In this document: one piece after another, positions 2,530 through 40,129 of the stretch
Position numbering within the stretch: the first letter of the stretch is position 1
Layout of the letters: every line of letters begins with the position of its first letter
IMG/VR virus record: IMGVR_UViG_3300029520_000002
Source of the DNA: a virus
Strand: one strand, 5' to 3'
DNA length: 64,000 bases
Made by a program: the position numbers and the translations under genes
The notes under the pieces: model-generated
Database searches by the model: none
What the model was told of the DNA's origin: nothing
The model's input: the letters and a program-made list of their open reading frames with translations, nothing else

Positions 2530-2718
2530 ATGGGAGAAACTAAAAGTACAGATTATATTCCAGAGAACGCCAATGAAGAATATGCACTTCTGGTTGGAAG
2601 ATTAAAGGCATTTGAAGCTTGGGCGAATAACGTGAACGATTATGATTTCACAAAGGATATGGCATTTAGAATGCTTGGGCTTGATGTGGACGAATCAAAG
2701 AAGGAAAAGAAAAAATGA
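2530..2718 (+). CDS. hypothetical protein
   Basis: 62-aa ORF with SD AAGGAGA, tightly packed with its neighbours. Confidence 0.55.
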   Translation: MGETKSTDYIPENANEEYALLVGRLKAFEAWANNVNDYDFTKDMAFRMLGLDVDESKKEKKK

Positions 2719-3665
2719 AATGCTTTAAAGGCTTTGATAAGAATTTAAAGTGCAGAGGTTTCCAGTATGAGGAGGGAAAAGAGTTTCATGTAGCAAAAGC
2801 GGATTGCTGTAATGAGGGATTTCATGCGTGTGAGTATCCTTTGGATTGTTTTGGTTATTATAATCCGGCTGAGAGTGTTTTCCATGAGGTAGAGTTATCT
2901 GGAGAAATGGATAAGAGTGAAGGTTATACTAAGGTATGTGCTACTGATATTAAGATTGGTGCAAGAATCTCTATTGCTGGATTGGTGAAAGCAGCTATTG
3001 AGTTTACCATGAGTAAAGTAAACAAAGAGGAAAAATCAGATGAAAGACACGGCTTTGCATCTGCGACAGGGTATCGTGGAGCCTCATCTGCGACAGGGAA
3101 TTTTGGAGCCTCATCTGCGACAGGGGATCGTGGAGCCTCATCTGCGACAGGGGATTATGGAGCCTCATCTGCGACAGGGGATTATGGAGCCTCATCTGCG
3201 ACAGGGGATTTTGGAGCCTCATCTGCGACAGGGGATTATGGAGCCTCATCTGCGACAGGGTATCGTGGAGCCTCATCTGCGACAGGGTATTGTGGAGCCT
3301 CATCTGCGACAGGGTATCGTGGAGCCTCATCTGCGACAGGGAATTTTGGAGCCTCATCTGCGACAGGGTATTGTGGAGCCTCATCTGCGACAGGGTATTG
3401 TGGAGCCTCATCTGTTAATGATCCTACTGGTGTTGCAATTGCATGGGGACATGAGGCAAAAGCTAAAGGTTGCTTAGGTGCTCACTTGATTATCTCTGAC
3501 TGGAGATACATTGGAGAAAAGTGGTCTAATGGAGAGTATAAAAGACCTTATGCATTAGAAAACTGGGAGCTTGCTGGTGCTAAAATGGTACGGGTAGATG
3601 GAGAAAACATTAAAGAAGATACTTTCTATACGTTGAAAGACGGAAAATTTGTAGAAGTAGATTAA
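2715..3665 (+). CDS. repeat protein: Cys/His-rich N-domain (DUF7666-like by recollection) plus about 13 nonapeptide repeats ASSATG-x-x-G
   Basis: 316-aa ORF. N-terminus is MKCFKGFDKNLKCRGFQYEEGKEF...CCNEGFHACEYPLDCFGYY. The central repeat is G-ASSATG-(Y/D/N)(R/Y/F/C). Confidence 0.7.
   Translation: MKCFKGFDKNLKCRGFQYEEGKEFHVAKADCCNEGFHACEYPLDCFGYYNPAESVFHEVELSGEMDKSEGYTKVCATDIKIGARISIAGLVKAAIEFTMSKVNKEEKSDERHGFASATGYRGASSATGNFGASSATGDRGASSATGDYGASSATGDYGASSATGDFGASSATGDYGASSATGYRGASSATGYCGASSATGYRGASSATGNFGASSATGYCGASSATGYCGASSVNDPTGVAIAWGHEAKAKGCLGAHLIISDWRYIGEKWSNGEYKRPYALENWELAGAKMVRVDGENIKEDTFYTLKDGKFVEVD
3057..3414 (+). repeat. 27-bp tandem repeat, about 13 copies, in-frame within CDS 2715-3665
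   Basis: The unit tcatctgcgacaggg-NATNNT-ggagcc repeats head to tail. Variation is confined to two codons per unit. Confidence 0.95.
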
Positions 3666-3935: not shown

Positions 3936-4112
3936 ATGAAAGAGGTGGTAAAGACAATAGGAGAAATATTTGTAGGGATAGGGATGTTTACAGTAATCTT
4001 CTCAATCACATGGATGTTTACACCATTTGATGCCATCGGGGTGTTCTTTGTATCAACAGTCTTATTCTTAATGGTGTTTCTTCCTATTATATTAGGAACG
4101 GAGGAAAAGTAA
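3936..4112 (+). CDS. small membrane protein (58 aa)
   Basis: SD GTGAGGA. Two hydrophobic stretches (IGMFTVIFSITWMF, VFFVSTVLFLMVFLPIIL). The stop abuts the next ATG. Confidence 0.45.
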   Translation: MKEVVKTIGEIFVGIGMFTVIFSITWMFTPFDAIGVFFVSTVLFLMVFLPIILGTEEK

Positions 4113-4730
4113 ATGCAAAGATTAAATAAAGTAAGATTATCCGGCAGAGCCGGGGAAATAGTGTTCAGCCACGAACATTACGGAAGATACTATTACAAAT
4201 TTATGCTGACAGTCATTCGCAGAAGCGGTGCAGTGGATATGTTTCCAATCGTTATAGAAGATTCCGTTGTGCGTGACAACGATTACAACGGAAAAGAAGT
4301 TTTGGTAACAGGAGCAATAAGAAGCATGGACACTTCTAAAAATCCAAATAAGCACCACAATGTTAATTATATCGCAGCTGACAAGGTGGAAGTTCTGGAA
4401 GAACAAGTTCCGGAGGGCGATATAAACGAAGTAGAGTTTATTGCCAGAAGTTGCACGAAAGAACCATATGCAAAACTTACACCAGTAACGCACAGAAAAG
4501 TTTCAAATCTTTTTGTAGCAATTCCAAGAGATCATTCAGAAAGAGCAGATTTTATTCGCTGTACTTTATGGGGAAAAGGGGCTGATCTGGCGGTAGAGGT
4601 TAAAAGAAATGATTACATTAAAGTAAACGGAAGGTTAATGAGCCGTGATGTTTATGTTAATGGGGAAGAAACGGAAAGTGTATATGAGATTTCCGTAAAA
4701 GAAATGGAGAAATTGGAGGATGAAGAATAA
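4113..4730 (+). CDS. SSB-like protein with two tandem OB-fold-like halves
   Basis: Each half follows the SSB OB pattern, e.g. ADFIRCTLWGKGADLAVEVKRNDYIKVNGRLMSRDV. Paralogous to the next gene. No acidic SSB tail. Confidence 0.5.
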   Translation: MQRLNKVRLSGRAGEIVFSHEHYGRYYYKFMLTVIRRSGAVDMFPIVIEDSVVRDNDYNGKEVLVTGAIRSMDTSKNPNKHHNVNYIAADKVEVLEEQVPEGDINEVEFIARSCTKEPYAKLTPVTHRKVSNLFVAIPRDHSERADFIRCTLWGKGADLAVEVKRNDYIKVNGRLMSRDVYVNGEETESVYEISVKEMEKLEDEE

Positions 4731-7592: not shown

Positions 7593-8699
7593 ATGACAGA
7601 AAACACACAGGTAGCAAATTTTAACACACAGCTTTCCTACTACACAAATCGTTATGTTGATTTAATGGAAAGAGATTTAACTTCAAGAGGAATGGAATTT
7701 GATTCCTACTCAAAGGATTGCGTAGTGGCAGCAATGGGATCTATTTTCCAGATGGTGCATGAGAGTGGAGTGAGTTTTGAAGCAATTAATGGCTCTAACC
7801 TTAAATTCATTCTGAGCAAAGTAGCAGCGTTAAAACTGAACGCAAACGCACAGCCGAGAGAGTGTTATTTCCAAATCAGAAACGTAAACATAGCGGCGAA
7901 AGGGCAGAAACCTCAGTGGGAGAAGAAAATCGAATTTGCGATTGAGGGCGATGGAAATGACGCTCTTGTAAGCAGATATGGTGTCGATGTAGCTAAAGTA
8001 TTCCCGTACTGGAAAGTCAGAGAAGGTGATAAGTATATCCCACCAAGACATAAGGGTGTGGAAATCACACCGCCAGAATGGGAAGAGTCTGGTGTAGGTA
8101 AGGTAGTGCGTATCGTATATCCGATTCAGTATAAGGACGGACATATTGAATATCTTTCTTGTGAAAGAGCAGATGTACTGAAGAATCTTGCAGCGCACAT
8201 CAAGAATAATCTCCAGAATGAAACGTTTGGAATTTGTGCAGACAGATATAAAGCTACAGATGCGCAGAAAGCTCAAATTGAAGCAAAGAAAAAAGAAATC
8301 ATGAAAAAGGTCTCTGACATTGGAGAACTGGAAGCAATCATTGACTGTGAGGAATTAAGACCGTATATTTCACCGTCTTATTATGAAACACAATCCAGAG
8401 AATCAATGATTATTCGTAAGATGCGAAACAACATTATGAAGTCTATTCCTAAGAAATGGGATAATCCGGTGCAGGCTTATGAATATAACATGATGGATGC
8501 TACGTACAGGGAAGTGCAGGAAGAAATCAAACAGAATGCCAATGTAGAAGAATTCATTCCACAGCCAGAAGCAATCGAAGAAAAGCCAAAGCAGCCAACC
8601 GTAGCCGAAACCGTAAAAACAGAAGAGAAAGAACCAATCCCGGCAGCAGAGCCAGTGGAAACAGAAATTCCGTCATTTATGAGCCAGGAGGAAATGTAG
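7593..8699 (+). CDS. putative RecT-like single-strand annealing protein
   Basis: 368 aa. Overall pattern (...QPRECYFQIRN..., VREGDKY..., acidic/proline-rich tail) and its position next to SSB-like and ATPase genes. Assignment is by recollection only. Confidence 0.45.
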   Translation: MTENTQVANFNTQLSYYTNRYVDLMERDLTSRGMEFDSYSKDCVVAAMGSIFQMVHESGVSFEAINGSNLKFILSKVAALKLNANAQPRECYFQIRNVNIAAKGQKPQWEKKIEFAIEGDGNDALVSRYGVDVAKVFPYWKVREGDKYIPPRHKGVEITPPEWEESGVGKVVRIVYPIQYKDGHIEYLSCERADVLKNLAAHIKNNLQNETFGICADRYKATDAQKAQIEAKKKEIMKKVSDIGELEAIIDCEELRPYISPSYYETQSRESMIIRKMRNNIMKSIPKKWDNPVQAYEYNMMDATYREVQEEIKQNANVEEFIPQPEAIEEKPKQPTVAETVKTEEKEPIPAAEPVETEIPSFMSQEEM

Positions 8700-8700
8700 G

Positions 8701-8862
8701 ATGGAAACTTCCACAATTGTGCTTATTATTTTGCTTTCAATAGCACTTTTGGTATGGATAGTATCTTTTATTCGAGAAAATGAATACAATCGAACCAATT
8801 TAATTATTCTTTTAAATGTTATTACATATGTGGTACTCATTATAATCCGACTTACAATGTAA
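8701..8862 (+). CDS. small membrane protein (53 aa)
   Basis: SD AGGAGGAAA. Two hydrophobic helices. Confidence 0.4.
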   Translation: METSTIVLIILLSIALLVWIVSFIRENEYNRTNLIILLNVITYVVLIIIRLTM

Positions 8863-8875
8863 AAGGAGAGCCAAA

Positions 8876-9160
8876 ATGAAGCATAAATGTATTAAGACAG
8901 CAGTATTAATCACAGGGATTACAGCAATCACAATGTTTAGCGGTTGTTCTTCCTGTAGCAGATCATTAAAATCACTGTCTAGTGATATTGACGGTGGTTT
9001 GAACCGTACCGTAACTGTTTACGATTACAACGGCGGTAAAATCAAGTCCTGGTCTGGGAAGTTCGATGTTTCTGAATCTGAAAATGAAGTTTATTTTGAT
9101 GATTCGGACGGAAAGAGGGTTATTATCCATGGCGGTATTGTAGTGAATGAGGAAAACTAG
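8876..9160 (+). CDS. lipoprotein
   Basis: Signal peptide with a lipobox (ITMFSGC). SD AAAGGAGAG. Confidence 0.65.
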   Translation: MKHKCIKTAVLITGITAITMFSGCSSCSRSLKSLSSDIDGGLNRTVTVYDYNGGKIKSWSGKFDVSESENEVYFDDSDGKRVIIHGGIVVNEEN

Positions 9161-9174
9161 GAGGGATAATAGTT

Positions 9175-9774
9175 ATGAATGAAATTTTAAAGAAAGCAAA
9201 AGAACTGGTTGAACTTTTAGAGAAGCAGGAGAAAAGTGGGAAAATCAAATTATCAGAGTTGAACCCTGGTGATGTATTCCAAACTACAGGTAAAAGAAAA
9301 TACAAAGTGTTGGAACAGTATGAAAATACCACCAAGATAGTTTCTTTTAACCTTGTAAAAGAAAATGTAAAATTCGGGGATAATGCAGATTATTTAGAGT
9401 CTGAATTAAAAGAACTTTGTGACACGGAAATTTTAGCGAATTTTGAAGAGGAATTTGGTGCGGAGAATATTGAAACACATGAAGCAGATCTTATTACGGT
9501 CGACGGTCAGAATACAGGCGTTTCGGTGAAATGTAAAATCAGACCTCTTACATTTGATGAAGCAAGAAAATATACGGAATTAACTCCGAACAAAAAACTT
9601 AATGACTGGTATTGGACATGTACATCTTGGTCAACAAAAGAACGCGGATGGAATAGCGTTGCCGTTGTTTCCTCCTCGGGTAACGTCCGCAACTATGTCT
9701 GCCTCGGTGTCAACGGTGTTCGCCCAGTTTGTATCTTAAAATCTAATCTCTTTGTATCTAAGGTGGAGGAATAA
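9175..9774 (+). CDS. DGR target protein 1 (DUF6273-like, C-terminal variable region)
   Basis: The C-terminus ...WYWTCTSWSTKERGWNSVAVVSSSGNVRNYVCLGVNGVRPVCIL contains VR1. Paralog of the next gene. No signal peptide. Confidence 0.85.
   Translation: MNEILKKAKELVELLEKQEKSGKIKLSELNPGDVFQTTGKRKYKVLEQYENTTKIVSFNLVKENVKFGDNADYLESELKELCDTEILANFEEEFGAENIETHEADLITVDGQNTGVSVKCKIRPLTFDEARKYTELTPNKKLNDWYWTCTSWSTKERGWNSVAVVSSSGNVRNYVCLGVNGVRPVCILKSNLFVSKVEE
9661..9735 (+). repeat. DGR variable region VR1
   Basis: 75 nt alignable to the TR. In the central 27 nt, 10 mismatches all fall at TR adenines. Confidence 0.9.
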
Positions 9775-9776
9775 AA

Positions 9777-10373
9777 ATGAAAAAAGATTTGAAATATTTT
9801 GAGTCAGAAATAAAAAGAATTACAGAGGAATTCGAGGATTACAAAAAGAAACACATGGGCACTCCGAAACCCGGGGAAGTGGTTGAAATTTCCGGTATGG
9901 AATGGATGATCCTGGACAAGCTTCCAGATGGATATTTTGCAATTTTAAATAGTTTTTATGGTAAAGCAAAAATGTTTGATTCAGATTCCAGCAATTGGAA
10001 AGAAAGTTCTTTAAGAGAAGAATTAAACACATCATTTTTAGAAAAAATTAATACGACTTTCGCTGGAAATGCAGTTGTTGAATTTGACCGTAACCTGTTG
10101 GCATTGGACGGGCAGACTGAATATGGAACTTGTAGAGATAAGATTTCACTCTTAACCGTTGATGAATACAGAAAATACAGGAAATATTTGCCAAATATGG
10201 ATAAATGGTGGTGGCTTATTACACCATGTAGTACACCTTGCAATGATTATTTTAAGAGCGTTGCCGTTGTTTCCTCCTCGGGTAACGTCCGCAGCAGTAA
10301 CTGCAGCAATGGCCTCGGTGTTCGCCCAGTTTGTATCTTTTCCTCTTCAATCTTTGAATCAGACGAGGATTAA
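9777..10373 (+). CDS. DGR target protein 2 (DUF6273-like, C-terminal variable region)
   Basis: The C-terminus ...WWWLITPCSTPCNDYFKSVAVVSSSGNVRSSNCSNGLGVRPVCIF contains VR2. Confidence 0.85.
   Translation: MKKDLKYFESEIKRITEEFEDYKKKHMGTPKPGEVVEISGMEWMILDKLPDGYFAILNSFYGKAKMFDSDSSNWKESSLREELNTSFLEKINTTFAGNAVVEFDRNLLALDGQTEYGTCRDKISLLTVDEYRKYRKYLPNMDKWWWLITPCSTPCNDYFKSVAVVSSSGNVRSSNCSNGLGVRPVCIFSSSIFESDED
10263..10337 (+). repeat. DGR variable region VR2
   Basis: 75 nt alignable to the TR. In the central 27 nt, 8 mismatches all fall at TR adenines. Confidence 0.9.
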
Positions 10374-10396
10374 TAATGGCAAATGAAGATTTATAG

Positions 10397-10747
10397 GTGA
10401 TAATAAAAGCCAAGCAGTTAGCAAAACACACGCTTATAGTAACCAGTAACGCGAGGAGATATCCTAAGAAATTCAGATTTTCTTTAGTTGATAAAATGCA
10501 GAACAAATCGCTCGAAATACACGCTAAGCTCTTTGAAGCCAATCGAACAGATTTGAAAGATTATAAGAGAGAAAGGCTAGAATTACAGACAAAAGCAATT
10601 ACATATTGTGATGAACTTCTCTTTTATATAGAGCTTTCATACGAGCTTAACATCATTAATTCGGGAAGTATGGAGGCATGGTCGAAAATGGTTACAGATA
10701 TTAAGCATATGGCGATTGCTTGGAGAACAAAAGACAGAAACAGATGA
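10397..10747 (+). CDS. avd: DGR accessory variability determinant (Avd-like four-helix-bundle protein)
   Basis: 116-aa basic helical protein between the targets and the TR. Size, position and pattern fit Avd. GTG start. Confidence 0.75.
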   Translation: MIIKAKQLAKHTLIVTSNARRYPKKFRFSLVDKMQNKSLEIHAKLFEANRTDLKDYKRERLELQTKAITYCDELLFYIELSYELNIINSGSMEAWSKMVTDIKHMAIAWRTKDRNR

Positions 10748-10771
10748 TTTTTATAGGTTATGCGTTGTAGA

Positions 10772-10846
10772 GCCGTTGTTTCCTCCTCGGGTAACGTCAA
10801 CAACAATAACTGCAACAATGACAACGGTGTTCGCCCAACCTGTATC
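10772..10846 (+). repeat. DGR template repeat (TR)
   Basis: Sequence: gccgttgtttcctcctcgggtaacgtc-AACAACAATAACTGCAACAATGACAAC-ggtgttcgccca-acctgtatc. A-rich AAC/AAT codons. Lies in non-coding DNA between avd and the RT. Confidence 0.9.
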
Positions 10847-10941
10847 ACAGGCAGACAGAGTAAGCAGAAAGCTGAAATCCGAATAGATACAAGCAAATGC
10901 ATAACCTTTCCGAAATGGATAAATATAAAGGAACAAAATAA

Positions 10942-11832
10942 ATGGATAAAGAAATTGTGGCAAATTTTGAAAACTTGTATTCATCTTACAAACGAGTTAA
11001 GGCAGATAAAAAATTCAATTCCGGCACTGCCAGGTTTTCTATTATGGCGTTGGAAGGAATCCAAACATTGAAAGAACAATTGGAAAATCAAACGTATTCC
11101 ATAGCACCGTATAATAAATTCAAAATATATGAGCCGAAAGAACGCATCATAGAATCGTGTTCTTTCAAAGACAAGACGGTACAGAGATGCTTTTCAGACT
11201 ACATTCTTACGCCGAAATTAAATAATATTTTTATAAAATGGAACACAGCAGGACAAATCGGAAAAGGTCATTATATGGCAATGGATGGTCTGCGAGATCA
11301 TATGTTGGAATTTTACGGTAAAAATGGTTTAAATGGCTGGATTGTAAAATGCGATATTCATAAATATTTTTACAGCATAGATCATGAAATCATGAAAGAC
11401 GTGGTGGATTACTATTTTGATGATGAATTTACAGTGTGGTTAAATCATCTATTTATTGACAGCGCCGAAAATCCAGGACTTCCACTTGGAAATCAAGTTA
11501 ATCAGAAATACGCATTGTTGTTACTGCATTCACTGGATCAAATGATAACAATTGAATACGGAATACAGCATTACGGAAGGTATAACGATGATTTCTATGT
11601 GATTTGTAAAAGTAAAGAAGAAGCCAGAGAAATACTTGAAGCTATCCAACTCATGGTTGAAAGCCTTAAATTAGAATTGAATACCAAATCACAGATTGTG
11701 CCATTTAAAATGGGATTGTGCTATCTTGGCTTTCACCATTATGTAACCTCCGATGGGAAATATATTAGAAAACTTCGAGGAGATAAAAAAGAAAAACACA
11801 CAGGAAGATTCGAAATTGGATTAGAGCTGTGA
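10942..11832 (+). CDS. DGR reverse transcriptase (main ORF, ends prematurely)
   Basis: RT motifs: EPKERIIESCSFKDKTVQ, CDIHKYFYSIDH, GLPLGNQVNQ, and the catalytic RYNDDFYV (YxDD). Confidence 0.9.
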   Translation: MDKEIVANFENLYSSYKRVKADKKFNSGTARFSIMALEGIQTLKEQLENQTYSIAPYNKFKIYEPKERIIESCSFKDKTVQRCFSDYILTPKLNNIFIKWNTAGQIGKGHYMAMDGLRDHMLEFYGKNGLNGWIVKCDIHKYFYSIDHEIMKDVVDYYFDDEFTVWLNHLFIDSAENPGLPLGNQVNQKYALLLLHSLDQMITIEYGIQHYGRYNDDFYVICKSKEEAREILEAIQLMVESLKLELNTKSQIVPFKMGLCYLGFHHYVTSDGKYIRKLRGDKKEKHTGRFEIGLEL

Positions 11833-11987
11833 ATAATGGCGAAATGACAGAAGAAAAATTTCAAGAAAAATATAATGCGTGTAAAAACAATATGCTGCAT
11901 GGGAATTGTATTAAATTATGCCACAGCATGGATTTGGATGTTAAGAAAAGAATGAAAAGAGGTGATGAAAAATGTTCATGCGAGTAG
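11787..11987 (+). other. -1-frame continuation encoding an RT C-terminal-like segment
   Basis: Open -1 frame reads KRKTHRKIRNWIRAVNNGEMTEEKFQEKYNACKNNMLHGNCIKLCHSM.... It resembles the usual DGR RT C-terminus and joins at the A6 run 11785-11790. Confidence 0.5.
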
Positions 11988-12739
11988 TAAACACAGGAAG
12001 TACCCATGGAAACTGCTATGTTCTGAAATCAAACACAGGAGAAATGCTTCTTCTGGACTGCGGATGCAGATACAAAGACATTCTGAAGGCTATTGATTAT
12101 AGGACAAGTGATGTTTCTGGTGTTCTTCTGACGCATGAACACGGTGATCACCGTGAATCATTTAAAAATCTGATGAATTTAGGTATTCAGATTTACACCA
12201 ATGATGAAACCGTGGAACATCTGCAAATCATCACTGGTGAGCTAATGAAAGGCGTTCCAGAAAAAAGACCGTTTCGTGTTGGCTCTTTTACAGTAATACC
12301 GTTTTATTTGCCTCATACCACAAGGGATAAGGACACAGGGCAACTTATTCCATGTTTCAATTATGGTTATATCGTGGAGCATGAAGAGATGGGAAAGCTG
12401 TTGTACATGACAGACTTTGAGTTTTGCCGATACAATTTCAAAGCAATGCGACTGAACCACTTAGTTATTGAGTGCAACTATTGTAAAGAATTGGTTGACA
12501 AAACAGCTGAAAATTACACGCACAGGCTTAAAGGGCATTGCTCCTTAGATACTTGCAAAAGCTTAGTAAATACAAACCATACGGCGGCATTACGGACGGT
12601 AACATTGGTGCATTTGAGTAATGAAGCAGCTGACCCGGAACAGATTTTGAGTGAGATACAAGAAACGTCTGGTGCTGATACAATCGTCCAGATTGCAGCA
12701 CCTGGACTGGAAATTAACTTGGACTTATGTCCGTTTTGA
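11972..12739 (+). CDS. MBL-fold metallo-hydrolase
   Basis: HxHxDH motif (LLTHEHGDHRES). SD GAGGTG. Confidence 0.8.
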   Translation: MFMRVVNTGSTHGNCYVLKSNTGEMLLLDCGCRYKDILKAIDYRTSDVSGVLLTHEHGDHRESFKNLMNLGIQIYTNDETVEHLQIITGELMKGVPEKRPFRVGSFTVIPFYLPHTTRDKDTGQLIPCFNYGYIVEHEEMGKLLYMTDFEFCRYNFKAMRLNHLVIECNYCKELVDKTAENYTHRLKGHCSLDTCKSLVNTNHTAALRTVTLVHLSNEAADPEQILSEIQETSGADTIVQIAAPGLEINLDLCPF

Positions 12740-12752
12740 AAGGAGAAAATTA

Positions 12753-13241
12753 ATGCCCAAAAAATTTAAAAACTATGTAATTAAAGGACAGGAGCATGTA
12801 GACCGTAAAACAGGAAAAACAATTCCTTCACTTAGTGCATGGCGTTCAGTAGAAGATGTGCTTCCAGAAACTCCAGTTGATGATACCGCATGTTTGTATT
12901 ATGTAAAGCTGAAAAACTCCGAAAAAATCATCATGCTTGCATATACTGGAAATGGCGAATGGACTGACACAGAAGGAAAAGAATACAAAGGTGTAGAGAC
13001 ATGGCTTGAATATATGCCGAAAATACATCCGATAGTCAAGAAAGAATTTTTCTTAAACGAAGAATTTCTGACAATGATTGTTTCTGACTACATGGAGAAA
13101 AATGAGGGAGTTACAGTTAATTCAAAAAATGTTCGCTTTAAAGTTGGAAGAAAAACTGTCGGCTATGGTATGAGTGAGCATGAAGAACTGGTATTCATTG
13201 GATGTGATGTAGTAGCTATGGGAGAGGAGGACTGTAAATGA
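12753..13241 (+). CDS. hypothetical protein
   Basis: ATG preceded by AAGGAGAAAA. 162 aa. Confidence 0.6.
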   Translation: MPKKFKNYVIKGQEHVDRKTGKTIPSLSAWRSVEDVLPETPVDDTACLYYVKLKNSEKIIMLAYTGNGEWTDTEGKEYKGVETWLEYMPKIHPIVKKEFFLNEEFLTMIVSDYMEKNEGVTVNSKNVRFKVGRKTVGYGMSEHEELVFIGCDVVAMGEEDCK

Positions 13242-30409: not shown

Positions 30410-31134
30410 GGATTTCCTTGATTTTTGGCTGCCAAAATGATGTTTGAATTTGGATATCATTCACAAGTTAGTTGCAACTATTGAAGCCTTGAACAGCTGC
30501 GGTTATTTATTACCACAAATCAACCAGGGACAGCGCCTGGAGCCGATACCACGCCGAACCGATGAAGCCGGGAAACTGCCAGGAACGATTGAACACCAAC
30601 GAAGTCAACCGCCAGCCGTAGCTCTGGCAGATCAGAACCAATAGCCCACGGATAATAGGCCATAGCAACAAGTAACATACAACACGACGTTAAAATACAA
30701 TAATACTCTTGCAAAATAAGCCTTAAATGGCTTGTAACGTATTTAGCCTATATTTTATTGGCTACGATTATAAAACGCCTTAAAATGGCAAATACAGCGT
30801 TATACAAGCATATCACAATATAGTTGTATAGCCCTAATTGATATATAGCCCGGACAACCTACGCACATAAGCGGACAAAATGCACCAATTTACACGGTAC
30901 ACAAATAAAGCATAGCCGAACATAGCTATACAAGGCTATTATACACCCATAGCCGCAGACAGTCAATAAATCATGCAACACACTATAAAGCGTTTTAAAG
31001 GCTCATAAACGGCTTATAATGCAAACGTGGAATAAATCACCATTAACAGCATAAAAAAACGATTTACGGATAAAATAGCTCGTTAATTGATTGACTTATT
31101 ATATTAACTTTGCAAGGTGTATCTGGCAGAATGC
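30410..31134. other. ORF-free, strand-asymmetric (A+C-rich top strand), iteron-bearing region
   Basis: No credible ORF. Hand counts for 30841-30900 and 30901-30960 give A 23/25, C 17/16, G 10/9, T 10/10. ATAGCC(C/G) occurs five times in one orientation. GCCTTAAA(A)TGGC mini-hairpins are present. Confidence 0.6.
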
Positions 31135-31190
31135 CAAAAAACCGCTTGCACGCCGTGAACGTGCCGCCGGTCTAGAAACCGGGAAGCGGT
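31135..31190 (-). terminator. intrinsic terminator of the minus-strand operon
   Basis: In minus sense, ACCGCTT...AAGCGGT encloses two inner hairpins and is followed by T6. Confidence 0.65.
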
Positions 31191-31196
31191 AAAAAA

Positions 31197-31346
31197 TCAA
31201 TCAGTTATACCTAAATATTCCATAGTTTTTTTATCAATCTCTTTCCCAGTAATAGTCGGGGAATAAATACTTTCTAAAAATTCTATGTAATTGTCTAGCT
31301 CATCAACAGAAAGTGTTATTAATTTATTAAATATTTTATCACTCAT
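31197..31346 (-). CDS. small hypothetical protein (49 aa)
   Basis: MSDKIFNKLITLSVDELDNYIEFLESIYSPTITGKEIDKKTMEYLGITD. Last gene of the minus-strand operon. Confidence 0.4.
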   Translation of the reverse strand: MSDKIFNKLITLSVDELDNYIEFLESIYSPTITGKEIDKKTMEYLGITD

Positions 31347-31402
31347 GTTTTTATCTTTCTTCCCTTCACCCTGGGAACCAGGATATAAAAAGACGCGCCC
31401 TA

Positions 31403-31780
31403 TTATTTAAAAGTCATTTTTGTAACAGCTGGAAGACTGCGGAAAAATTCCCGGCGGTCGTAATCATCATTAATTCTAAATTGTTGGTCGCTTGTGGGGA
31501 TGATCTCGCCCTCGATAAGCTCCATACAGGAGAGCTGTAAACAGTCTGCATTTTTTGTTGATCTGTGCAGCGCATATCGCATCACAGACTTTTTACCATC
31601 CCGACGCTTTACCGGGGACATATCCCAATAAGCCAATTTAATAGCTCCATCGGAAACAGCCTTGAAGATTTCCATTGCTTCCTTTTCAGCTTTTCTGTTG
31701 ATTGTATCAACTGTGGAGAAATCGCCGCTTTTTATGGCGGCGATTGTCTGTGCTTGTGTTGCTTTCTTGATTGTTACCAT
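31403..31780 (-). CDS. hypothetical protein
   Basis: 125-aa ORF with an SD (GGAGGTG on the minus strand) upstream. Confidence 0.65.
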   Translation of the reverse strand: MVTIKKATQAQTIAAIKSGDFSTVDTINRKAEKEAMEIFKAVSDGAIKLAYWDMSPVKRRDGKKSVMRYALHRSTKNADCLQLSCMELIEGEIIPTSDQQFRINDDYDRREFFRSLPAVTKMTFK

Positions 31781-38781: not shown

Positions 38782-38854
38782 TGGGCTATCGCCAAACGGT
38801 TAAGGCATAGGATTTTGGCTCCTTTATTTGTCGGTTCGAATCCGACTAGCCCCG
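38782..38854 (+). tRNA. tRNA-Gln (anticodon UUG)
   Basis: Hand-folded cloverleaf of 73 nt. Acceptor TGGGCTA/TAGCCCC (1-72 is a T-C mismatch). D arm GCC/GGC. Anticodon arm TAGGA-TTTTGGC-TCCTT. T arm GTCGG-TTCGAAT-CCGAC. Resembles Bacillus tRNA-Gln. No encoded CCA. Confidence 0.8.
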
Positions 38855-39060: not shown

Positions 39061-39133
39061 GGAAGCTTAGTTCAGCGGTAAGAGCAACGGCCTCATAAGC
39101 CGTAAGTCCTGGGTTCAAATCCCAGAGCTTCCA
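39061..39133 (+). tRNA. tRNA-Met/Ile2-type (anticodon CAU), elongator-like
   Basis: Acceptor GGAAGCT/AGCTTCC. D arm GTTC/GAGC. Anticodon arm ACGGC-CTCATAA-GCCGT. T arm CTGGG-TTCAAAT-CCCAG. The G1-C72 pair argues against an initiator. Confidence 0.85.
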
Positions 39134-40057: not shown

Positions 40058-40129
40058 AGAAACATAGCTCAGTGGTAGAGCAATGATATCCAATATCATG
40101 TGACACAGGTTCGATTCCTGTTGTTTCTA
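40058..40129 (+). tRNA. tRNA-Trp (anticodon CCA)
   Basis: Acceptor AGAAACA/TGTTTCT. D arm GCTC/GAGC. Anticodon arm ATGAT-ATCCAAT-ATCAT. T arm ACAGG-TTCGATT-CCTGT. Confidence 0.85.

Follow-up and report, generated by a model that had tools for sequence, protein, structure and literature searches.

A diversity-generating retroelement island with two small lectin-like targets and an apparently disabled core in the recombination module of a gut phage

Introduction

What does a diversity-generating retroelement (DGR) do among the recombination genes of a phage, and does it still work there? The question is raised by positions 9,175 to 11,987 of IMG/VR virus record IMGVR_UViG_3300029520_000002, analysed here as a stretch of 64,000 nt (the window). 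A first-pass annotation, made from the letters alone, had read this region as a complete DGR in which one template repeat (TR) serves two variable regions (VR1 and VR2), lying in tandem target genes that were probably not tail fibres. We put at roughly 85% the probability that the region is a genuine DGR island in the RecT recombination module, with a core that is disabled in this genome and with ligand-binding targets for which a tail-fibre role is unlikely.

Results

Differences between the repeats fall on template adenines

The TR, VR1 and VR2 were compared without gaps, with the index counted from 0 along their 75 nt. The three are co-linear: index 0-26 and 54-65 (GGTGTTCGCCCA) are the same in all of them, and the central block holds 10 mismatches in VR1 and 8 in VR2, each at a TR adenine. 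The comparison reproduced the coordinates, the common 27 nt and the number of differences reported in the first-pass annotation, and the enrichment of differences at A sites gave p = 2e-7 for VR1 and p = 8e-6 for VR2 (one-sided Fisher tests). The 5′ 27-mer has exactly three copies in the window, where 0 are expected; it occurs only these three times when up to 3 mismatches are allowed, so we found no third, remote VR in the window, and no related contig held more than three matches to a relaxed VR pattern. The variable codons, eight AAY and one GAC, are in frame with both target open reading frames (ORFs). This design permits 15^8 x 4, or ~1e10, proteins per target, and stop codons cannot arise from it.

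The remaining mismatch lies at the 3′ limit of the repeats, where index 66-68 is ACC in the TR and GTT in both VRs (GGTGTTCGCCC-AACC vs. GGTGTTCGCCC-AGTT), followed by a common TGTATC. The VRs thus end in GGTGTTCGCCCAGTTTGTATC and the TRs in GGTGTTCGCCCAACCTG(T/G)ATC, a distinction that is kept across 10 TR variants. The difference is conserved in all lineages, with G at index 66 in all 39 VRs; it is, as originally proposed, the distinction between the initiation of mutagenic homing (IMH) sequence of the VRs and its TR counterpart (IMH*), and not mutagenesis.

The element works in related phages

Scanning IMG/VR with a TR that carried N at the variable adenines recovered 25 related phage contigs of ~80 kb each. 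A relaxed pattern added four further contigs, and diverged lineages, with targets 62-74% and reverse transcriptase (RT) ~80% identical, were found by using RecT as an anchor. Among close relatives the TR is the same in 24 of 24 copies, and 19 of 20 VR1 and 20 of 21 VR2 sequences are distinct. Substitutions occupy 186/342 A sites in VR1 and 183/360 in VR2, against 5/912 and 7/960 other sites; that is, ~52% of A sites vs. ~0.6% of non-A sites, a difference of ~90-fold. The AAC at index 21-22, constant in the window, is variable in the relatives, and nine further TR variants in diverged lineages show the same layout and the same A-only pattern. These comparisons indicate that the element works at the population level in related phages. 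In genome pairs with a common VR1 (differences at no more than 4 of 17 A sites) the VR2 sequences are unrelated (7-15 differences), and the reverse is also true; one acceptor is therefore rewritten per homing event, and both are used. VR1 and VR2 are thus rewritten independently, one at a time.

The same data bear on whether the likeness of TR, VR1 and VR2 could be an ordinary gene-family repeat, made of the 3′ ends of two paralogues and a pseudogene fragment whose divergence is A-biased by chance. The two target genes are indeed paralogues, and a shared 3′ segment could have been inherited. Outside the 75-nt repeat, however, their proteins are only 31% identical, yet the non-A positions of the repeat are 100% identical; moreover, the TR lies in the non-coding gap between avd and the RT gene. 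Together with the TR/VR comparison, the Fisher tests, the TR variants and the ~90-fold bias of the relatives' differences toward A sites, this makes a gene-family repeat extremely improbable, and we rejected it.

In close genomes (VR1 of the window, L023, L004 and L009; VR2 of L008/L020/L011 and of L047/L123; loci are cited by our own labels) only 1-4 VR positions differ, and almost every one is a TR adenine. In the clade of the window, L023, L004 and L009, the whole 600-nt gene of the first target differs only at VR index 27 and 42, and the VR2 differences between L011 and L008 form one contiguous patch at index 42-49. Differences this small or patchy would not be expected if fresh cDNA replaced the whole VR; they could have come from a cDNA:VR heteroduplex that was repaired in patches, from variants that recombined, or from an assembler's consensus of mixed populations. 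In L043 (reverse complement, 4240 and 4842) both VRs have the VR1-type 3′ flank (TGTATCTTAAAATCTAATCTC), which points to an exchange between the target genes, by recombination or by conversion. Finally, L014 lacks 3 nt within VR1 and L021 lacks 1 nt within VR2, the latter a loss that would put the target out of frame; VR heterogeneity may have misled the assembler in these cases.

The core genes carry two lesions specific to this genome

The order of the island is target 1 (T1), target 2 (T2), avd, TR, spacer and RT. The first-pass annotation called this cassette complete. The identities of avd and RT stood up to profile and PDB matches, but both genes are interrupted, avd by a stop at codon 7 and RT by a frameshift, and both lesions are specific to the window. 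Avd matches phrog_3206, 'Avd protein of DGR' (E=1.8e-20); its match to NCBIfam DivGenRetAVD (NF033474, E=4e-9) is below the cut-off, those to Pfam bAvd and 23S_rRNA_IVP are also sub-threshold, and a sequence search of the PDB gave no match. The RT sequence contains LGNQVNQ and YNDD motifs. When repaired, the RT is 348 aa long, and its best PDB match is 8ub7_A (E=3.7e-23), in an alignment that extends beyond the shift point and outranks group II, retron and Drt RTs. We take 8ub7_A to be the RT of Bordetella phage BPP-1 (bRT), although its table label is only 'Reverse transcriptase'.

Codon 7 of avd is CAG, AGA or AAG in 59 of 59 copies from relatives; the window alone has TAG, in place of CAG. 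(One relative, L109, has an avd stop at codon 11.) In the RT gene, the adenine run at 11785-11790 is six long in the window and reads A7 or CA6C in relatives. As a result, frame 1 runs from 10942 to 11832 (296 aa), and the last 52 codons, up to 11987, are in the −1 frame. Complete RT ORFs of relatives are intact in 38 of 38 cases and encode 339-348 aa (16 and 22 ORFs, in two locus sets that share many contigs). Since both unique lesions fall in the 1.4-kb core and the flanking ORFs that we checked (SbcC, RecT, lipoprotein, T1, T2, MBL-fold hydrolase (metallo-β-lactamase fold; MBL) and single-stranded DNA-binding protein (SSB); ~5 kb coding) are intact, real decay is favoured over sequencing error. 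The machinery in this genome is most likely switched off, and with an avd stop and an RT deletion both VRs are probably frozen products of earlier activity.

Two kinds of recoding were considered and set aside. Reading TAG as Gln finds no CUA suppressor among the phage tRNAs (Gln-UUG, Met and Trp); read-through of TAG gains less open frame than the TGA and TAA controls, and 14 of 80 long frames end in TAG. A conserved programmed frameshift in the RT gene was ruled out, as every relative that we examined is in frame.

Several points tell against an inactive core. The RT lesion is a 1-nt change in a homopolymer (A6 vs. A7), where an assembly error is possible; an in-frame GTG immediately follows the avd stop, so that a slightly shorter Avd could be made; and inactivity has been deduced from the assembled sequence and not from reads. 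In addition, both VRs are fully diversified relative to the TR, and the RT of the Quimbyvirus DGR, which lies in overlapping frames, has been reported as apparently active (PMC8008677). These points would suit a cassette that is fully functional here, either because its lesions arose in sequencing or assembly or because the phage gets round them, through slippage of the ribosome or the RNA polymerase on the A run and a restart of translation at GTG 10397. We consider this unlikely, though by no means far-fetched. The intact RT ORFs and sense codons of the relatives show that neither feature is a conserved recoding signal, the C-to-T change in avd is not a homopolymer-type error, and both disruptions sit in the core rather than in the longer flanking sequence. 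Independent inactivation of the core is also common in the clade, as described below.

The island is accessory and loses its core repeatedly

We counted the states of the island in 80 contigs with a RecT at least 92% identical to that of the window. Between RecT and the MBL hydrolase gene, 22 contigs have the full cassette, 8 have both targets and no RT, 2 have T1 only and 47 have nothing; in the remaining contig the locus ends before the MBL gene is reached. Several of the empty sites have the lipoprotein stop codon 38 nt from the MBL start. The cassette is thus an accessory island between the lipoprotein and MBL-hydrolase genes. Because the lipoprotein gene is present in relatives that lack the island, it is a neighbour and not a DGR component.

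Sequence comparison further indicates that the core has been lost repeatedly and independently, with the targets kept. It is deleted in L023/L062, in L047/L049 and in L139 (8781-8885), where the MBL gene directly follows T2. L138 (9350-10375) has a stop in its RT (Y125*, TAC GGT to TAA AGT); both L138 and L139 carry a RecT identical to the window's. L114 has lost the RT and retained the TR. In L004 (reverse complement, 10970-11436), which lies on the same contig as L053, avd breaks off after 32 codons and an unrelated 157-aa ORF (MGNRYNKKHGCSH...) takes the place of the TR and RT; both targets are kept. This ORF has no Pfam match; our impression, which we have not verified, is that it looks like a homing endonuclease. 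The closest relatives, L023, L004 and L009, have exactly the same RecT protein and a T1 that differs from the window's at 1-2 VR A sites, and the core is intact in one of these three and lost in two. Retention of targets without a DGR core has also been noted for Toutatisvirus (bioRxiv 10.1101/2024.10.15.618418).

The site itself takes other cargo. In L136 and L140 (7570-8533) a CxxCxxCC-domain protein (PF03692) and two small ORFs lie between the lipoprotein and MBL genes, and the site is therefore a general variable hotspot. The MBL hydrolase, intact in the window, is called as two ORFs (58 + 189 aa) in many relatives, such as L134 (10382-11157); tblastn matches in relatives cover only residues 58-255, and the protein has weak similarity to the anti-Pycsar Apyc1 family. 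A promoter and terminator scan of 8600-12800 found nothing above the shuffled background.

A predicted RNA duplex brackets the TR

RNAalifold was run on 14 diverged loci, using a 218-column alignment of the avd 3′ end, the TR and the spacer. Most columns are invariant (mean column identity 90%), in lineages whose RT proteins are ~80% identical. A predicted long-range duplex of 13 bp closes around the TR, and a stem-loop and an A-rich stretch follow it (Table 1). Of the 13 pairs, nine never change and the other four change in just one of their two strands; 1 of 182 cells is unpaired, so that the duplex is 99.5% paired, vs. 30-39% for slid partners used as a control. The shorter hairpin at the TR 3′ end has one compensatory change, C-G to A-U, in L118 and L125; the differing IMH prevents the VRs from forming it. 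An Rfam scan of the whole window detected three tRNAs only.

The RNA of the BPP-1 DGR has an upstream:downstream duplex around the TR (the 'cPRT Stop') together with a stem-loop and adenosines, and such a duplex, averaging 13 bp, was predicted in 207 of 278 DGRs (bioRxiv 10.1101/2023.10.23.563531). By analogy, the 13-bp duplex, stem-loop and adenosines of our locus resemble a cPRT-Stop arrangement. The likeness is made less secure by the lack of double-sided compensatory changes in the duplex, most of whose pairs never vary at all. A separate point against our overall interpretation is that the hairpin or cruciform that forms the BPP-1-type target recognition element just downstream of the VR (PMC3240598) has no counterpart close to VR1 or VR2, where 76-nt DNA folds gave z = +1.3 and +0.2, respectively. 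The only stem seen near the VR ends is a weak one of 5+5 bp after VR2. To our knowledge, a VR-proximal hairpin is not universal among DGRs. A BPP-1-like template:primer pairing of TGTATC in the TR (10841-10846) with GATACA (10886-10891), 1 nt (A10892) before the duplex, was also considered; its geometry is appealing, but T10843 changes to G or C without compensation, and we do not claim this pairing.

From these elements a working mechanism can be sketched. The transcript of the avd 3′ end, TR and spacer would fold so that the duplex closes the TR loop, with the stem-loop and adenosines after it, as suggested by conservation and the BPP-1 analogy. By homology and from the A-only pattern, an RT-Avd complex would copy the TR into cDNA, misincorporating opposite adenines. 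The cDNA then replaces VR1 or VR2, one per event, with the IMH as the 3′ limit, as the comparison of related phage genomes shows. The outcome is the randomisation of nine codons on a predicted β-hairpin in each of two ~200-aa 'helix + lectin' paralogues.

The targets are predicted to be small C-type-lectin-like proteins

T1 and T2 are tandem paralogues, as first described, and share phrog_9958. Only T2 passes the cut-off of Pfam DUF6273 (PF19789; 31.9 bits vs. 23.5 bits), although T1, which fails it, has the same predicted fold. A homologue search gave 4306 matches and 1412 representatives of 50%-identity clusters, mostly of ~200 aa. In the AlphaFold2 (AF2) models, an N-terminal helix (residues ~3-26) with a heptad-like hydrophobic pattern precedes a single globular domain, and a β-hairpin (strands 171-175 and 179-181) carries the variable residues, 170 and 172-180. 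The top Foldseek match in the PDB, and the only strong one, is 9qa6 for both proteins (T2, E=5e-7), an IgA peptidase of Thomasclavelia ramosa with an annotated DUF6273 domain at its N-terminus (PMC12402451). It is followed by carbohydrate-recognition domains (CRDs) of C-type lectins at weak E-values of 0.07-1 and by the Legionella Lcl domain; the fold resembles collectin neck + CRD units, and the BFVD matches of T2 are DUF6273 phage proteins. The models also agree with published models of DUF6273 DGR targets (PMC10743442). The structural check on both targets proposed at the outset thus yielded a C-lectin-like fold with the variable residues on a hairpin. In both models a helix leads into a DUF6273 C-type-lectin-like domain that holds the VR at its C-terminal end, and T1 and T2 are predicted to be ligand-binding proteins.

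Neither target has a signal peptide, a membrane segment or a hydrophobic N-terminus, in agreement with the first-pass annotation; the 94-aa protein encoded upstream does have a lipoprotein-type signal. Beta-prism, β-sandwich and immunoglobulin (Ig)-type attachment domains are absent from both AF2 models, and neither Mtd nor TvpA structures were among the top 50 Foldseek PDB matches.

The island lies in the early module of a prevalent phage lineage

The window is a phage genome with all annotated genes on one strand. Its early genes are, in order, an antirepressor, two SSB-like genes, an SbcC-like ATPase, RecT, the lipoprotein gene, the island, the MBL hydrolase and SSB, which bears out the placement of the targets in an early recombination/replication module. 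Methyltransferases, a DnaD-like loader, a serine integrase and three tRNA genes follow; beyond these lie the terminase, portal and major head protein genes and a weak match to a major tail protein, with the head genes at 44-50 kb. Well away from the head genes, a separate gene for a 316-aa protein with collagen-like or tail-fibre-like matches lies after the antirepressor and ahead of the SSB/SbcC/RecT genes.

The exact RecT protein occurs in 938 blocks of a public assembly index, one of them a 329-kb contig; the lineage is therefore extremely prevalent, and it is probably observed in prophage form. Neither a megablast search of deposited phages with the cassette nor a search of GTDB representative genomes for the exact TR gave a match. 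The large terminase subunit (TerL) is at most 50% identical to that of any deposited phage, and its relatives at 53-64% are found mainly in Lachnospiraceae genomes. The host is probably a member of the Lachnospiraceae, and the carrier is an uncultured, very prevalent temperate gut phage of ~80 kb.

Table 1. Coordinates of the island and of other features of the window.
Feature	Position	Strand	Remarks
316-aa protein gene	2715-3665		PHROG matches, phrog_4433 E=4e-104
RecT gene	7593-8699		368 aa
Lipoprotein gene (DUF5052-like)	8876-9160	+	94 aa; left border; Pfam DUF5052 E=1e-6; phrog_2316; lipobox-type N-terminus
Target gene 1 (T1)	9175-9774	+	199 aa; phrog_9958 E=2.5e-26; Pfam DUF6273 19.6 bits, under gathering cut-off; AF2 predicted local distance difference test (pLDDT) 94.8
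VR1	9661-9735	+	3′ end 9715-9735 is the IMH
Target gene 2 (T2)	9777-10373	+	198 aa; Pfam DUF6273 E=1.5e-7, above cut-off; phrog_9958 E=2.6e-49; AF2 pLDDT 92.5
VR2	10263-10337	+	3′ end 10317-10337 is the IMH
avd	10376-10747	+	ancestral ATG 10376; TAG at 10394-10396; frame reopens at GTG 10397
Long-range duplex, 5′ strand	10755-10768	+	just upstream of TR; cPRT-Stop-like (RNAalifold)
TR	10772-10846	+	75 nt; 20 adenines; 8 AAY codons + GAC
IMH*	10826-10846	+	TR 3′ end, GGTGTTCGCCCAACCTGTATC
Hairpin CCTG-TATCA-CAGG	10839-10851	+	4 pairs; straddles TR 3′ end and spacer
Long-range duplex, 3′ strand	10893-10907	+	within TR-RT spacer (RNAalifold)
Stem-loop and A-rich stretch	10908-10941	+	stem-loop TTCC...GGAA 10908-10933, then CAAAATAA; directly 5′ of RT start codon
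RT gene	10942-11987	+	RVT_1 E=6e-11; phrog_1423 E=2e-74; split by 1-nt deletion
MBL-fold hydrolase gene	11972-12739	+	right border; Lactamase_B; phrog_392 E=4e-55; start overlaps RT 3′ end
tRNA-Gln (UUG)	38782-38854		
tRNA-Met (CAU)	39061-39133		
tRNA-Trp (CCA)	40058-40129		

Discussion

Virion protein or not?

Homologues of T2 that are ~30% identical occur in FP_Toutatis, Lelie, nd4, nd12 and FP_Brigit. We inspected the small DUF6273 homologues in four records, FP_Toutatis gp24 (L026), Lelie orf58 (L027), nd4 30965-31669 (L132) and FP_Brigit 3948-4559 (L133); they represent three distinct lineages, since Lelie is 87% identical to FP_Toutatis, and the FP_Brigit copy is counted here as a homologue of the small protein. 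The neighbours in these records are regulators, exonuclease/RecT, methyltransferases or replication genes, not tail genes. Because of this consistent early-module location and the lack of a virion-attachment domain, a classical tail-fibre role for T1 and T2 is unlikely. The earlier statement that they are probably not tail fibres is upheld to this extent, but it does not carry over to the virion as a whole: judged by synteny and fold, the odds that T1 and T2 ride on the virion or act elsewhere are roughly even.

That function and localisation are read from synteny and fold is itself a weakness of our interpretation, and so is the fact that published authors favour a receptor-binding role for the small DUF6273 class (nd4/nd12, PMC10743442; Toutatisvirus, bioRxiv 10.1101/2024.10.15.618418). 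T1 and T2 could be virion-borne receptor-binding or adhesion proteins with an Mtd-like role, attached to the tail or capsid by the N-terminal helix, and their gene position could merely be where the cassette landed. A majority of phage DGR targets carry a tail-protein annotation (PMC8144416), the heptad-like helix and collectin-like fold would suit an adhesin, and virion proteins would have no signal peptide. Set against this are the missing attachment domains, an early or replication neighbourhood that recurs in all four other records and so did not arise once by chance, and the close packing of the targets on one strand with RecT, the lipoprotein gene and MBL, where no promoter or terminator stood out from the background. 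On balance we place a virion adhesin a little short of an even chance.

A more speculative proposal, which we judge improbable, is that this class consists of early-expressed, hypervariable, soluble binders that act outside the virion, as an antibody-like repertoire in the infected cell or released at lysis. It would explain the early-module synteny, the independent diversification of two paralogues and the discarding of the mutator while the binder pair is kept. If true, such binders might act, for example, against variable host defence or takeover targets.

Comparison with known systems

DUF6273 C-lectin targets, double targets and off-module targets have all been recorded before in DGRs of gut phages, and little here is new in kind. 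What is particular to this locus is that both targets are small tandem paralogues adjoining the core, that they occupy a RecT-MBL hotspot of a very prevalent phage, and that this copy has two fresh lesions. The value of the locus lies in a clean natural data set, comprising an empty site, intact cassettes, targets only and a point-lesioned core, with acceptors rewritten singly. It is a good system for studying the role of small early-module lectin targets, the frequent loss of the mutator after diversification and the generality of a duplex that brackets the TR.

The BPP-1 DGR (mtd-avd-TR-brt) has the same order of target, avd, TR and RT, A-specific mutagenesis from AAY codons and an IMH that is rich in GC and has an IMH* counterpart in the TR, and the predicted RNA duplex around our TR, with the stem-loop and adenosines after it, parallels that of BPP-1. 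In contrast to BPP-1, our island has two targets, outside the tail module and without the β-prism and β-sandwich of Mtd; there is no hairpin or cruciform after the VR, the TR is 75 nt and the spacer ~95 nt long, and the core is damaged. In an Mtd-type tail-fibre protein, the N-terminal β-prism and β-sandwich serve to dock a C-lectin trimer on the tail fibre; T1 and T2 are modelled as one helix and one globular domain. Tentaclins, which combine an N-terminal VR-bearing DUF6273 domain with Ig-like/Fn3 (fibronectin type III) domains (Baykov et al., 2023), differ from the single-domain T1 and T2, with their C-terminal VR and no Ig-like domain.

The Quimbyvirus DGR (Benler et al., 2021; PMC8008677) likewise belongs to a gut phage and has an RT in more than one frame. 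Of its two C-lectin targets, one was considered non-structural because of the genes around it. Its multi-frame RT, however, spans near-identical genomes and was interpreted as programmed, whereas our frameshift is found in one genome only; host phylum, target family and gene layout also differ.

Close parallels are the small DUF6273 targets nd4_tgt2 and nd12_tgt2 (Baykov et al., 2023; PMC10743442), the 'small' targets of Faecalibacterium phages Lelie and CP11 (PMC11792537) and the core-genome target of Toutatisvirus (bioRxiv 10.1101/2024.10.15.618418). With Quimbyvirus, these precedents overturn the initial view that two small targets outside the tail module are unusual. Our island departs from them in that both targets are small, in tandem and placed immediately before avd-TR-RT, and in belonging to another phage lineage; neither a large Ig-domain 'tentaclin' partner nor a remote target accompanies the pair. 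It resembles them in the single C-lectin-like domain with short flanking helices and a C-terminal VR on a hairpin, in the ~30% identity to T2, in the position of the gene away from structural genes, and in targets that outlast the DGR core.

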